This document shows, piece after piece, positions 1 to 6,020 of a DNA stretch of 64,000 nt. This stretch comes from Escherichia coli (GTDB lineage Bacteria; Pseudomonadota; Gammaproteobacteria; Enterobacterales; Enterobacteriaceae). Positions within the stretch are counted from its first letter, which is position 1. Each line of letters starts with the position of its first letter. The position numbers and the translations under genes were made by a program. The stretch lies in assembly GCF_044324875.1 (NCBI RefSeq), contig NZ_CP172185.1; one strand, written 5' to 3'. Under the pieces are notes generated by a model. The model saw only the letters and a list, made by a program, of their open reading frames with translations, made no database searches and was not told the DNA's origin.

Positions 1-137
1 CGGGAGATTACCGGGAAATGCCAACGCGCGATCAGCGTGACCGAAATGAGATGTATCTTTCGGTTATTCCGGCGGCAGATGTCATTGCTGCTGTCGATAA
101 ATTACTGCCCTCCTCCACGACAGGTACGTCGTTATGA
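1..137 (+). CDS. waaQ: 3' end of LPS core heptosyltransferase III gene (partial, start lies outside window)
   Basis: Open frame from window edge to TGA at 135-137, overlapping the waaG ATG by 4 bp; position upstream of waaG matches the waaQ operon order. Confidence 0.55.
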   Translation, partial: GDYREMPTRDQRDRNEMYLSVIPAADVIAAVDKLLPSSTTGTSL

Positions 138-1258
138 TCGTTGCTTTTTGTTTATATAAATATTTTCCCTTTGGCGGTTTGCAGCGCGATTTCATGCGTA
201 TTGCTCAGACAGTCGCCGCTCGAGGTCATCATGTTCGGGTTTATACCCAGTCGTGGGAAGGCGAATGCCCTGATGTATTTGAACTGATCAAAGTGCCGGT
301 TAAATCGCATACCAATCACGGGCGCAATGCGGAGTATTTTGCCTGGGTGCAAAAACATTTACGCGAACATCCCGTCGATAGAGTCGTTGGATTCAACAAA
401 ATGCCGGGGCTGGACGTTTATTATGCCGCTGATGTTTGTTATGCCGAGAAAGTAGCGCAGGAGAAAGGCTTTTTCTATCGCCTGACGTCACGTTATCGCC
501 ATTATGCCGCCTTTGAGCGAGCAACCTTTGAACAGGGTAAGCCGACACAGCTGCTGATGCTGACAGATAAGCAAATCGCCGATTTCCAGAAACATTATCA
601 GACTGAAGCGGAGCGTTTTCATATTCTGCCACCGGGGATTTACCCTGATCGTAAATATAGCCAGCAGCCAGCCAATAGCCGTGAAATCTTCCGTAAGAAG
701 AATGGAATAACCGAACAGCAATATTTATTGTTGCAGGTCGGTTCAGACTTCACGCGTAAAGGTGTCGATCGCTCCATTGAAGCACTTGCTTCGTTACCGG
801 ATTCGCTGCGCCACAACACATTGCTATATGTTGTTGGGCAGGATAAACCGCGAAAATTTGAGGCGCTGGCAGAAAAACGCGGCGTGCGCAGTAATGTTCA
901 CTTCTTCTCGGGGCGCAATGATGTCTCGGAATTAATGGCGGCGGCGGATTTATTACTGCATCCTGCCTACCAGGAAGCGGCGGGAATTGTGCTGCTGGAA
1001 GCGATTACTGCAGGATTACCGGTACTAACAACTGCCGTTTGTGGCTATGCGCATTATATTGTCGACGCCAATTGCGGCGAGGCTATTGCTGAGCCATTCC
1101 GCCAGGAAACATTGAATGAGATTTTACGCAAAGCGTTAACGCAATTTTCATTGCGCCAGGCCTGGGCGGAAAATGCGCGACATTATGCTGATACACAAGA
1201 TTTGTACAGTCTGCCAGAGAAAGCGGCGGATATCATAACGGGTGGTCTGGATGGTTGA
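134..1258 (+). CDS. waaG: LPS core glucosyltransferase I (GT4)
   Basis: 374-aa ORF; N-terminus and length match WaaG as I recall it. Confidence 0.9.
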
Positions 1259-2048
1259 ACTTAAAGAGCCGTTTGCCACGTTATGGCGCGGAAAAGATCC
1301 TTTTGAGGAAGTTAAAACTTTGCAGGGTGAGGTATTTCGTGAACTGGAAACTCGCCGTACTCTGCGCTTTGAAATGGCGGGCAAAAGCTATTTTCTCAAA
1401 TGGCATCGCGGCACGACCCTGAAAGAGATAATCAAAAATTTACTCTCATTGCGGATGCCAGTATTAGGCGCAGACCGCGAATGGAATGCGATTCATCGAC
1501 TGCGGGATGTCGGCGTTGATACTATGTATGGGGTGGCATTCGGCGAAAAAGGCATTAATCCGCTGACCAGAACCTCGTTTATTATAACCGAAGATCTGAC
1601 ACCAACCATCAGTCTGGAAGATTACTGTGCTGACTGGGCGACTAACCCTCCAGATGTTCGCGTAAAGCGTATGCTTATTAAGCGTGTCGCGATGATGGTG
1701 CGCGATATGCATGCTGCGGGCATTAACCACCGTGACTGTTATATCTGTCATTTCCTGCTGCACTTGCCTTTTTCCGGTAAGGAAGAGGAGTTAAAAATTT
1801 CGGTAATTGACCTGCACCGGGCGCAGCTTCGCACGCGCGTTCCACGTCGTTGGCGCGATAAAGATCTTATTGGGCTTTATTTTTCTTCGATGAATATTGG
1901 CCTGACTCAGCGGGATATCTGGCGGTTTATGAAAGTGTATTTTGCCGCCCCGCTTAAAGACATTCTCAAGCAGGAACAAGGACTGCTGTCGCAAGCAGAA
2001 GCAAAAGCCACAAAAATCAGGGAAAGAACGATTAGAAAATCGTTGTAA
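1251..2048 (+). CDS. waaP: LPS core heptose kinase
   Basis: ORF track starts at 1242; trimmed to MVELKEP giving 265 aa as in WaaP; overlaps waaG stop. Confidence 0.88.
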
Positions 2049-2090
2049 CCCGTAACTTATTTTTGCCAAAATTTTGGATACAGAATAAAT

Positions 2091-3098
2091 ATGTCTCAAC
2101 TCAATGATAGTGACATCATCCTTTTTGAGTATAACTTTCATTATCAAAATATAAGATCTAAAAATACTCTTGATATCGCATTTGGTATTGACAGAAATTT
2201 TCTTTTTGGATGTGGTGTAGCCATCGCATCTATTCTATTAAACAATAGCGAAATCTCTTGTGAATTTCATGTTTTCACAGATTATATCAGTGATAAAGAC
2301 AAGTTATATTTTTCCGATTTAGCAAAACAATATAATTCAAGAATTAATATTTATGTTATCAATTGTGATAAGCTGAAGTCATTACCAAGCACGAAAAACT
2401 GGACTTACGCTACATATTTTCGATTTATAATTGCAGATTATTTCTATAATAAACATGAAAAAATACTATACCTTGATGCAGATATTGCTTGCAAGGGTAG
2501 TATTAAAGAACTCTTAGATTATCAATTCTCTACTAATGAAATTGCCGCAGTTGTAGCTGAAAGAGATGTTGAATGGTGGCAGAATCGAGCCTCGGTATTA
2601 ACTACACCACAATTAGCTTCTGGATATTTCAATGCTGGTTTTTTGCTGATAAATATTGATGAGTGGAATCTAAATAACATTTCGTCAAAAGCTATTGAAA
2701 TGTTGCGTGACCCAGATTGGGTAAGTAAAATCACCCACCTTGATCAAGATGTACTGAATGTATTATTGAATGGTAAAGTGAAGTTTATTTCGGGGAAATA
2801 TAATACCCGATATAGTATTAACTATGAATTAAAAGACAAAGTTGATAATCCAGTCAATGATGACACCGTGTTTATACACTATGTGGGACCTACAAAACCC
2901 TGGCATGAGTGGGCTGATTATCCGGTGTCACGTAGTTTTTTGATCGCCAAAGCAGCTTCTCCGTGGTGTAAAGAAGATTTACTTAAACCTGTGAATAGCA
3001 ATCAGTATCGGTATTGTGCAAAACATAAATTTAAACAAAAGCATTATATGGCAGGCATTTTTAATTATTTAAAGTATTATAAAGAAAAATGCTTCTAA
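2091..3098 (+). CDS. waaI: LPS outer-core alpha-1,3 glycosyltransferase, GT8 family (WaaI/WaaO type)
   Basis: 335-aa GT8-like protein directly after waaP; AT-rich; name assigned from R3-type gene order. Confidence 0.7.
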   Translation: MSQLNDSDIILFEYNFHYQNIRSKNTLDIAFGIDRNFLFGCGVAIASILLNNSEISCEFHVFTDYISDKDKLYFSDLAKQYNSRINIYVINCDKLKSLPSTKNWTYATYFRFIIADYFYNKHEKILYLDADIACKGSIKELLDYQFSTNEIAAVVAERDVEWWQNRASVLTTPQLASGYFNAGFLLINIDEWNLNNISSKAIEMLRDPDWVSKITHLDQDVLNVLLNGKVKFISGKYNTRYSINYELKDKVDNPVNDDTVFIHYVGPTKPWHEWADYPVSRSFLIAKAASPWCKEDLLKPVNSNQYRYCAKHKFKQKHYMAGIFNYLKYYKEKCF

Positions 3099-3123
3099 AG
3101 ATTTAAGGTTAAAATAATTCATT

Positions 3124-3831
3124 ATGATATATAATAAAACGATAAATGGGTTGAAAGTTTTCATAAAAGATAATGATCCCTTTTATGAGCAAGTGCTGAA
3201 TGACTTTTTAACTTGCAGGGTTAAAACATTAAAAGTTTTTCGTTCTATTGATGATACTAAAGTCATTCTTATTGACACTGCTCGTGGACCTCTTGTACTT
3301 AAAGTTTATGCGCCAAAGCATAAAATGATCGAACGTTTCTTAAAATCTTGCGTAAAAAAAGATTATTATGAAAATTTAATTTATCAAACCGATCGGGTAC
3401 GTGGTGAAGGCATTCAATCAATTAATGACTATTTTTTGCTTGCTGAACGTAAAACATTAAATTTCGCGCATTATTATATTATGCTCATTGAGTATATTGA
3501 AGGTGTCGGGTTAAATGAGTATTTGGAAATTTCTGAAGATCTGAAGGAACAATTATCAGAATCGATAAAAGAGTTGCATCAGCATGGAATGGTGTCTGGC
3601 GATCCTCATAAAGGAAATTTTATAGTATCCGAAAAAGGTTTAAGACTAATTGACCTTTCAGGTAAAAAAACAACCGCAGTTTTAAAAGCAAAAGATCGCA
3701 TTGATCTTGAACGGCACTATAATATAAAAAATGAATTGAAAGACTTTGGCTATACATATCTCATATTCAAAAAGAAAATTAAAAAAGCAATCAGGGATGT
3801 AAAAGTAAAACTAGGATTGAAGAGCAAATAA
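3124..3831 (+). CDS. waaY: LPS core heptose II kinase
   Basis: 235-aa kinase-like protein, size and position as WaaY. Confidence 0.7.
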   Translation: MIYNKTINGLKVFIKDNDPFYEQVLNDFLTCRVKTLKVFRSIDDTKVILIDTARGPLVLKVYAPKHKMIERFLKSCVKKDYYENLIYQTDRVRGEGIQSINDYFLLAERKTLNFAHYYIMLIEYIEGVGLNEYLEISEDLKEQLSESIKELHQHGMVSGDPHKGNFIVSEKGLRLIDLSGKKTTAVLKAKDRIDLERHYNIKNELKDFGYTYLIFKKKIKKAIRDVKVKLGLKSK

Positions 3832-3855
3832 TGATTATGATGAAGGGTAATTAAA

Positions 3856-4869
3856 TTGGATTTTAAACATCTTACTCAATTTAAAGATATAATTGAACTG
3901 GACAAGCGCCCCGTTAAACTTGATGAACGGGAAACGTTTAATGTCTCATGGGGTATTGATGAGAACTACCAGGTTGGGGCTGCGATTTCAATTGCTTCAA
4001 TTCTTGAAAATAATAAACAAAACAAATTTACCTTTCACATAATCGCTGATTACTTAGACAAAGAGTATATTGAATTATTATCACAATTAGCAACGAAGTA
4101 TCAAACAGTAATTAAATTATATCATATTGATTCTGAGCCATTGAAGGCGCTACCTCAATCAAATATCTGGCCAGTATCTATTTATTATCGTTTGCTTTCA
4201 TTTGATTATTTTTCTGCGCGATTGGATTCATTATTATATCTTGATGCTGATATCGTCTGTAAGGGTTCATTGAACGAGTTAATAGCATTAGAGTTTAAAG
4301 ATGAATATGGGGCTGTGGTAATTGATGTAGATGCTATGCAAAGTAAAAGCGCTGAGCGTTTATGTAATGAGGATTTTAACGGTAGCTATTTTAACTCTGG
4401 TGTAATGTATATTAATTTACGGGAATGGTTACAACAAAGACTAACGGAGAAATTTTTTGATCTATTATCAGATGAGTCAATTATCAAAAAATTAAAGTAT
4501 CCGGATCAAGATATTTTAAACTTAATGTTTTTACATCATGCTAAAATATTACCGAGAAAATATAATTGTATTTATACTATAAAGTCAGAATTTGAAGAAA
4601 AAAATAGTGAATATTACACCCAGTTTATTAATGATGAAACTGTCTTCATACATTATACTGGTGTAACTAAGCCATGGCATGATTGGGCGGACTACGCATC
4701 TGCAGATTATTTTCGTAATATTTATAATATATCTCCATGGAGAAATATACCTTATAAAAAAGCTGTTAAAAAACATGAGTACAAAGAAAAATATAAACAC
4801 TTGCTTTACCAGAAAAAATTTCTCAATGGTGTTTTTACAGCAATTAAATATAATGTTATGAAAGGTTAA
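3856..4869 (+). CDS. waaJ: LPS outer-core alpha-1,2 glycosyltransferase, GT8 family (WaaJ type)
   Basis: 337-aa GT8-like protein; frame opens after TGA at 3841-3843 and first start codon is TTG at 3856. Confidence 0.65.
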   Translation: MDFKHLTQFKDIIELDKRPVKLDERETFNVSWGIDENYQVGAAISIASILENNKQNKFTFHIIADYLDKEYIELLSQLATKYQTVIKLYHIDSEPLKALPQSNIWPVSIYYRLLSFDYFSARLDSLLYLDADIVCKGSLNELIALEFKDEYGAVVIDVDAMQSKSAERLCNEDFNGSYFNSGVMYINLREWLQQRLTEKFFDLLSDESIIKKLKYPDQDILNLMFLHHAKILPRKYNCIYTIKSEFEEKNSEYYTQFINDETVFIHYTGVTKPWHDWADYASADYFRNIYNISPWRNIPYKKAVKKHEYKEKYKHLLYQKKFLNGVFTAIKYNVMKG

Positions 4870-4877
4870 TATTCGAG

Positions 4878-6020
4878 ATGGTTGATAAAATAATATTTAC
4901 AGTTACTCCTATTTTTTCAATTCCTCCCCGCGGAGCGGCCGCTGTTGAAACGTGGATGTATCAGGTTGCTCAGCGTACCAATTTCCCAAATCGCATTGTT
5001 TGTATCAAGAATCCAGGATACTCAAATTACACCTTTGTTAATGATAATTGTAGTATTCATAGGGTTGGATTCAGTCGCATATATAAGCGGTTATTTCAAA
5101 AATGGACAAGACTTGATCCTCTACCATATTCACAGAGAATATTGAATATTGCCCATGATTTTCCTATAACGAAAGAAAGTGTTATTGTAGTTCATAATAG
5201 CATGAAGCTATACACTCAAATTCGTAAGCGAGCTCCTCAGGCAAGAGTGGTTATTCATATGCATAATGCATTTGAACCAAAATTGCTTGAGCAAAATGTT
5301 AAAATGATAGTGCCTAGTTTATACTTGAAAAAGTATTACCAATCTTATTTAGCAAATGCAGATATTGAGATTGTACCAAATGGAATTGATTTAGAAACCT
5401 ATCAATCTACTTTTCAGCCGATCACTAGAAGCGAACTTAATATCTCCCCTGAAGAGAAAATTATTTTTTATGCTGGGCGTATCGTCCCTGACAAAGGCAT
5501 ATTACTGTTGATGCAATCATTCGAAAAATTGGCCGTTGCTCACAAAAATTTAAAATTAGTTGTGATTGGTGATTATACAGAAATGAGTAAAAGTGACAAA
5601 GGTGCATATCAACACAATGTCAGGGAAATTGCAAAACGTTTGAAGGATCGTTGCATTATGTTAGGAAGCATACCGCCTGAAAAGATGCATTGTTATTACC
5701 CACTGGCAGATTTAGTTGTCATTCCTTCCCAGTTCCAGGAACCATTTTGCATGGTGGCAATTGAAGCTATGGGGGCTGGTAAGCCTGTTTTAGTGAGTAC
5801 GCGTGGGGGGATGACGGAATTTGTCAAAGAAAATACTACGGGATTCCATTTAAAAGAACCTATGACTGCAGACTCCATAAGCAGCGATATTTTAAAAACG
5901 TTAGCGAATCCTGAATTAACAGCAGTTGCAAAGCAAGGTCAGGATTTTGTGTTTGATCACTACAGTTGGGATGGCGTAACTCAAAGATTCGAAGAGGTCA
6001 TTCATAATTGGTTTGAATAA
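4878..6020 (+). CDS. waaD: LPS outer-core glycosyltransferase, GT4-like (WaaD of R3-type clusters)
   Basis: 380-aa glycosyltransferase as last gene of the waaQ operon, convergent with waaL. Confidence 0.6.
   Translation: MVDKIIFTVTPIFSIPPRGAAAVETWMYQVAQRTNFPNRIVCIKNPGYSNYTFVNDNCSIHRVGFSRIYKRLFQKWTRLDPLPYSQRILNIAHDFPITKESVIVVHNSMKLYTQIRKRAPQARVVIHMHNAFEPKLLEQNVKMIVPSLYLKKYYQSYLANADIEIVPNGIDLETYQSTFQPITRSELNISPEEKIIFYAGRIVPDKGILLLMQSFEKLAVAHKNLKLVVIGDYTEMSKSDKGAYQHNVREIAKRLKDRCIMLGSIPPEKMHCYYPLADLVVIPSQFQEPFCMVAIEAMGAGKPVLVSTRGGMTEFVKENTTGFHLKEPMTADSISSDILKTLANPELTAVAKQGQDFVFDHYSWDGVTQRFEEVIHNWFE

Follow-up and report, generated by a model that had tools for sequence, protein, structure and literature searches.

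The TTG codon at positions 3856–3858 of the window (the whole 64,000-nucleotide stretch of Escherichia coli DNA analysed here) is very probably the true start codon of R3-type waaJ, read from a Shine-Dalgarno-like site in an unstructured leader and ancestral to the clade to which the gene belongs. The original prediction, made from the letters alone, was of a waaJ-type gene with a TTG start, and this is supported by the existing annotation, the domain boundaries of the protein, the position of the Shine-Dalgarno-like site and conservation across genera. The start is already annotated in public databases, and the only mildly new point is the depth of its conservation in other genera.

According to the open reading frame (ORF) map, this part of the window covers the central operon of an R3-type LPS core (waa) locus of E. 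coli (Table 1). Both this map and the RefSeq annotation of the identical locus place waaJ between waaY and waaD(R3), upstream of the opposite-strand waaL. The order waaG-P-I/O-Y-J-D, followed by waaL on the other strand, is the same as in the R3 loci of RefSeq. Directly upstream of waaJ, waaY belongs to the same operon and the same reading frame, and 24 nt separate its stop codon from the TTG. A 601-base query across the junction of the two genes found a 100% identical sequence in E. coli strain 118UI and had matches in 1363 of 5426 complete E. coli genomes, among them O157:H7, O55:H7, O26, O103, O111 and O104:H4. R3-specific typing primers (PMC13293308) match the window at 3940–3962 and 4941–4960, with a product of 1,021 bp, as published. 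Further upstream in the operon, the start of waaP is ambiguous between a GTG and an ATG, and the end of waaG is overlapped either way.

Table 1. Features of the waa locus and of the waaJ start region (positions in the window).
Feature	Position	Strand	Basis or remark
waaG	134–1258		ORF map
waaP	start GTG 1242 (ORF list) or ATG 1251 (RefSeq)		after waaG
waaI/O	2091–3098		ORF map and RefSeq
waaY (rfaY), LPS core heptose(II) kinase	3124–3831	+	ORF map; RefSeq of the 100% identical strain 118UI
In-frame stop run TAA TGA tta TGA TGA, between waaY and waaJ	3829–3843	+	sequence, translation
Out-of-frame mini-ORF ATG ATT ATG ATG AAG GGT AAT TAA (MIMMKGN*)	3831–3854	+	sequence
Shine-Dalgarno-like AAGGGT	3843–3848	+	pairing with the 16S 3' tail; 13 of 15 lineages
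AAA adjoining the start codon	3853–3855	+	majority-base fraction across 15 lineages
TTG initiation codon of waaJ (very probable)	3856–3858	+	first canonical start after the stops; RefSeq CDS start; conservation
waaJ (R3 type), GT8 family, 337 aa	3856–4869	+	ORF map, RefSeq, Pfam, solved-structure matches
Glycosyltransferase family 8 catalytic domain (residues 29–278)	3940–4689	+	Pfam PF01501
DxD motif D130-A131-D132	4243–4251	+	invariant in the clade
First in-frame ATG (codon 161), rejected as start	4336–4338	+	3' of DxD, in the middle of GT8
waaD(R3)	4878–6020		ORF map
waaL, waaC, waaF, hldD		opposite to the waaJ operon	ORF map

In the waaJ frame, the waaY stop codon (TAA, 3829–3831) is followed by TGA (3832–3834), TTA and two further TGA codons (3838–3840 and 3841–3843), after which AGG GTA ATT AAA lead to the TTG; the in-frame translation reads KSK, two stops, L, two stops, RVIKL. 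That the frame opens after the TGA at 3841–3843, that TTG 3856 is the first possible initiator and that no in-frame ATG lies between them had all been claimed beforehand, and each point was borne out by the sequence and its translation. The TTG is the first ATG, GTG or TTG after the stop and the sole canonical initiator ahead of the catalytic domain, and the ORF listing likewise opens the 337-residue frame with it. No GTG or TTG occurs between codons 2 and 28 of waaJ, and the stretch from codon 1 to the domain contains only the near-cognate codons ATA (codon 12), ATT (codon 13) and CTG (codon 15). The four in-frame stops parting waaY from waaJ fall within 15 nt; in O157:H7 the same run reads TAA TGA tta TAA TGA.

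The domain structure of the protein sets a limit on where translation can begin. GT8 is an LgtC-like family of retaining glycosyltransferases with the GT-A fold. The GT8 family profile PF01501 matches residues 29–278 over its full length (profile positions 1–253 of 253; 214.1 bits against a cutoff of 24.3, E = 3.2e-63), followed by the C-terminal GT8C domain PF08437 at residues 280–336 (47.7 bits against a cutoff of 23). Among solved GT8 structures, WaaJ matches 3tzt (E = 5e-16) and LgtC (1g9r; E = 1.7e-13), with WaaJ residue 31 aligned to LgtC residue 4. With the GT8 domain starting at residue 29 and this alignment to LgtC, translation has to begin upstream of about nt 3940. The D130-A131-D132 triplet, the DxD motif that binds metal and nucleotide sugar in this family, is invariant among 20 aligned homologues and aligns with the DID region of LgtC. 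Given the strong GT8 match and a RefSeq CDS with identical coordinates, waaJ is not a chance ORF. Assignment of the protein to the WaaI/WaaO galactosyltransferases (NCBIfam NF011718) was rejected: at 296.1 bits against an equivalog cutoff of 461 it scores as a paralogue, and the true waaI/O of the window is a separate ORF (Table 1). From the literature, R3 WaaJ is the glucosyltransferase by which the outer-core galactose placed by WaaI receives Glc II; that WaaJ adds Glc II is stated in PMC3184986, which cites Kaniuk et al. (2004). Deletion of waaJ in S. flexneri 2457T truncated the core (Martinic et al., 2011; PMC3184986); the arms of that deletion correspond to window positions 3859–3888 (codon 2 onward) and 4837–4866 (to the last sense codon).

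ATG is the commonest start codon of E. coli, opening 83% of its genes against about 3% for UUG, which initiates with methionine at 10–100% of the efficiency of AUG (bioRxiv 10.1101/063800). The original prediction had kept in reserve that the true start might be a downstream ATG, so that the TTG-proximal codons would be an untranslated leader. However, the first in-frame ATG is codon 161, past the DxD motif, and a protein begun there would lose GT8 residues 29–160, the nucleotide-sugar-binding N-terminal half of the domain including DxD. Across genera, moreover, codons 2–28 change synonymously while the protein that they encode is conserved. The fallback is thereby refuted, and we regard a downstream ATG start as next to impossible.

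The N-termini of homologous proteins agree with initiation at the TTG. In a protein search, close relatives at 59–75% identity open with [M/L]DFKxLTxFKDI; the database entries of several carry an actual L in first place, and a few have longer N-termini from an upstream ATG. A conserved N-terminus beginning at a downstream ATG would have spoken for the fallback, yet the homologues align to the TTG position. The UUG would be decoded as formyl-methionine, giving WaaJ the predicted N-terminus M-D-F-K-H-L. A literature search found no direct published evidence on the WaaJ N-terminus.

Conservation of the start was analysed at the DNA level in 15 lineages, comprising the window and 14 fetched as DNA. 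The latter are Enterobacter sp. Ag1, Citrobacter freundii M-21, Citrobacter sp. R56, a multi-species Citrobacter protein, Silvania confinis, a genome labelled Vagococcus sp. WN89Y and eight metagenomic or SRA-assembled contigs. The 15 lineages span 55–83% protein identity, at which four-fold sites are saturated (pairwise identity 0.33 on average, range 0.17–0.49). While synonymous sites vary in this way, the initiator is conserved: at the position homologous to 3856, 14 lineages have TTG and one (L089) has GTG. None of the 34 four-fold columns reaches 14 of 15, and none keeps one base in more than 11 lineages. Likewise, at the 11 invariant-leucine columns no single codon is shared by more than nine lineages, and an internal TTG by no more than four. 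Had it encoded an ordinary leucine, the codon at 3856 would not have remained TTG, and from these comparisons we take it to be under constraint as an initiator. As a sign of adaptive tuning, the codon statistic is indicative but not conclusive, because a single codon also persists in at least 14 of the 15 lineages at 10 of the 114 columns whose amino acid is invariant.

The TTG was retained in four lineages (L022, L094, L097 and L098) despite an in-frame ATG 2–21 codons upstream, and also in L095, whose gene call used a downstream GTG. From codon 2 onward, the 15 lineages show conservation of the coding type, with position 2 more conserved than position 1 and position 1 more than position 3; beyond −20, similarity falls to background. 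Among the orthologs, the spacer between the Shine-Dalgarno-like site and the TTG varies by 1–2 nt and no relationship remains further upstream, so that the DNA ahead of the TTG is non-coding in the waaJ frame. The TTG, the Shine-Dalgarno-like site and the adjoining AAA would be ancestral to this GT8 clade and are kept across genera.

Annotated starts disagree among the orthologs. The gene call of L095 (1162–1203) uses a downstream GTG, and those of L022 (2977–3003), L097 (1201–1266) and L098 (1201–1230) use upstream in-frame ATGs. All four retain a TTG and a Shine-Dalgarno-like site at the homologous position, so their database N-termini are probably mis-set. Separately, the lineage labelled Vagococcus sp. 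WN89Y (L094, GCA_052220145.1) carries an enterobacterial-type waa locus (GT8, waaY, waaJ-like, GT4, HtrL). Vagococcus is a Gram-positive genus, and the assembly is likely mislabelled or contaminated.

Inspection of the sequence ahead of the TTG for a Shine-Dalgarno site, one of the checks proposed at the outset, found AAGGGT with its 3' end at −8, within the 5–10 nt spacing. Its duplex with the 3' tail of 16S rRNA has an energy of −4.6 kcal/mol, equal to or better than most of its neighbours in the operon (−3.1 to −6.6 kcal/mol for the other genes). The stretch from −30 to +33 has 21% G+C and a folding energy of only −4.5 kcal/mol, which makes for an A/U-rich and essentially unstructured leader. 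Across the 15 lineages, a site of the AAGG[G/T] type ends 5–9 nt upstream in 13, and the AAA at −3 to −1 has majority-base fractions of 0.93, 0.93 and 0.87, compared with about 0.40 further upstream. The AAGGGT site would direct initiation at the TTG from this open leader within the long waaQ operon transcript. A search for a promoter or terminator inside the waaY–waaJ junction gave no signal above shuffled controls. A sigma-70-like match lies in the first waaJ codons (3864–3893; TAAACA, 18 nt spacer, TATAAT; 10 of 12 positions); the number of such sites in the region, too, was not above shuffled controls.

Initiation might also occur upstream of the TTG, either at ATT 3850, which is in frame, or from a mini-ORF ATG (3831, 3837 or 3840) combined with a +1 frameshift at AAT-TAA-A. 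Besides the frame of the ATT, such a start could draw on the motif ATGATG...AAGGGTAAT, which recurs in L004, L005, L006 and L098, and on L022 and L098, which have an upstream ATG in the frame of the TTG. For the ATT, however, the Shine-Dalgarno-like site is too near, at a distance of only 1 nt, and AUU initiates at about 1–2% of the AUG level (bioRxiv 10.1101/063800). It was rejected as the main start on these grounds, and might at most act as a minor one. Against the frameshift, the distance from ATG to TTG varies among orthologs (19, 20 or 23 nt, with frame offsets of 0, 1 and 2), and nine of the 15 lineages have no such ATG. By codon–anticodon rules, re-pairing of tRNA-Asn from AAU to AUU would in addition be poor. 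As the distance and frame vary and the ATG is missing from those nine lineages, there is no conserved frameshift site, and a programmed +1 frameshift from the upstream ATGs was rejected. Altogether, a start upstream of the TTG appears extremely unlikely.

The mini-ORF in the junction consists of seven codons. Its ATG overlaps the waaY stop (TAATG, 3829–3833) and its TAA (3852–3854) ends 1 nt before the TTG. The string ATGATG..AAAGGT recurs in L004, L005, L006 and L098, but its frames and stops differ, and the mini-ORF is therefore not a conserved ORF; most other lineages have gaps of 53–111 nt without an equivalent. It was consequently rejected as a clade-wide leader peptide, since frames and stops differ among the orthologs and the ATGs are missing in most lineages. 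Any role for it is speculative and would be confined to E. coli. Such a role could be a relay of termination and reinitiation, running from waaY through the TAATG mini-ORF to the TTG, by which the TTG would mainly be reached in E. coli. The geometry fits this reading, with the TAATG overlap, the mini-ORF stop beside the TTG and the 24-nt gap, and O157:H7 keeps the mini-ORF despite a substitution (MIIMKGN*). Yet the lineages with 53–111 nt gaps and no mini-ORF still keep both the TTG and the Shine-Dalgarno-like site, and the Shine-Dalgarno-like site inside the mini-ORF suffices for de novo initiation. We consider the relay unlikely as the main route to the TTG; if it did operate, the weak codon would be largely irrelevant to WaaJ output.

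Within E. coli, the TTG start is shared by annotation and sequence alike. The R3 waaJ of E. coli and Shigella (RefSeq WP_000346019.1 and WP_000346017.1) is the same entity as the gene in the window, with the same coordinates and TTG start and no difference. In all strains inspected (118UI, HD12481 and O157:H7 2159), the RefSeq CDS begins at exactly this TTG and encodes 337 aa, under the product names UDP-glucose--(galactosyl) LPS alpha1,2-glucosyltransferase or glycosyltransferase family 8 protein. The 59 bases around the codon (3842–3900) are identical in 1343 of 1351 matching complete E. coli genomes; the other eight include strain EC18, the one looked at individually. Megablast searches of complete E. 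coli genomes with 85-base queries carrying ATG or GTG found no identical genome, a result that settles the matter only for the 804 genomes in which these 85 bases are the same as in the window. Strain EC18 (L099, NZ_CP060914.1) carries a 1195-bp IS5 element at 2044–3238, within waaJ codons 9–10 (about 3881–3884 of the window). The TTAA of window positions 3881–3884 was apparently duplicated, and the PGAP GT8 CDS starts inside the IS end. EC18 presumably has a truncated R3 core.

More distant enterobacterial GT8 core transferases, including WaaJ of Salmonella and homologues in Pectobacterium, Providencia and Arsenophonus, have the same GT8 plus GT8-C architecture at 33–54% identity. Their lead of 22–27 residues before [FL][NH][IV]xYG compares with the 27 residues that the TTG start gives WaaJ before FN[IV]S[WY]G. 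Nearly all of them have an ATG at a comparable position, whereas a few (Pseudocitrobacter and one Providencia) have GTG only and none has TTG only; these starts are approximate, being assigned by a simple rule from candidate starts upstream of the conserved motif and a Shine-Dalgarno score. On this comparison, the TTG start is a trait of the clade at about 55% identity or more and not of the whole family.

Because UUG initiates less efficiently than AUG, WaaJ synthesis would be expected to lie below the AUG level and to be kept modest. The long retention of the TTG suggests tolerance of this level at the least, and possibly selection for it. Belinky et al. (PMC5622118) found the rate at which UUG starts change to AUG or GUG to be roughly half that of four-fold sites. 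With four-fold sites saturated and switching at about half their rate (PMC5622118), several switches would be expected among the 15 lineages. One switch to GTG and none to ATG is fewer than this average predicts, which hints at specific retention. The original prediction also offered that a weak start codon may tune the proportions of the outer-core glycosyltransferases, and the keeping of TTG by 14 of 15 lineages at saturated synonymous divergence is compatible with this idea. It is conceivable, and we propose it only tentatively, that the TTG, the AAGG[G/T] site and the AAA are actively maintained by selection in Escherichia, Citrobacter, Enterobacter, Silvania and their relatives, capping WaaJ relative to the ATG-initiated core enzymes; the argument rests on conservation among 15 lineages that are not phylogenetically independent. 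In that case, Glc II addition could be kept from outrunning the preceding galactose and heptose-phosphorylation steps. Alternatively, WaaJ output could be made sensitive to IF3 or ribosome availability, and E. coli might add a two-step reinitiation relay through the MIMMKGN mini-ORF.

The TTG may also have persisted for non-adaptive reasons, if little WaaJ is needed, selection for ATG is too weak, and chance and shared ancestry did the rest. This account, to which we give not quite an even chance, agrees with the weakness of start-codon selection overall: selection generally favours AUG, and the asymmetry between UUG and AUG is not significant in the gamma-proteobacteria (Belinky et al., PMC5622118). 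One lineage did switch to GTG, and 10 of the 114 invariant-residue columns likewise keep a single codon in at least 14 lineages. What speaks against it is that only this one switch, and no substitution to ATG, occurred over a divergence at which four-fold sites are saturated.

Two E. coli genes offer points of comparison. In cya (adenylate cyclase), as in waaJ, a canonical but inefficient UUG follows an ordinary Shine-Dalgarno site. Reddy and colleagues reportedly raised cya expression, in work of 1985, by changing this UUG to GUG or AUG. The effect on expression was measured for cya, whereas what the present analysis shows for waaJ is evolutionary retention. The AUU start of infC, which encodes IF3, is tied to IF3 autoregulation, a feedback loop that has been demonstrated. 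A conserved non-AUG start is common to infC and waaJ, and in infC its weakness is the point of the design. Nothing suggests a feedback loop for waaJ, in contrast to infC. The two also differ in codon class, the AUU of infC being one of two confirmed non-canonical starts (bioRxiv 10.1101/063800).

Because the TTG-start annotation appears correct, constructs, deletion designs and typing schemes based on the 337-aa WaaJ are sound. In some relatives, gene callers have probably erred in choosing an upstream ATG or a downstream GTG. Biologically the point is modest, with nothing in it to surprise a specialist. Nevertheless, waaJ offers a clean natural case in which a UUG start has persisted while synonymous sites became saturated, and the gene could be used to test whether enzyme ratios within the LPS core operon are set by weak start codons.
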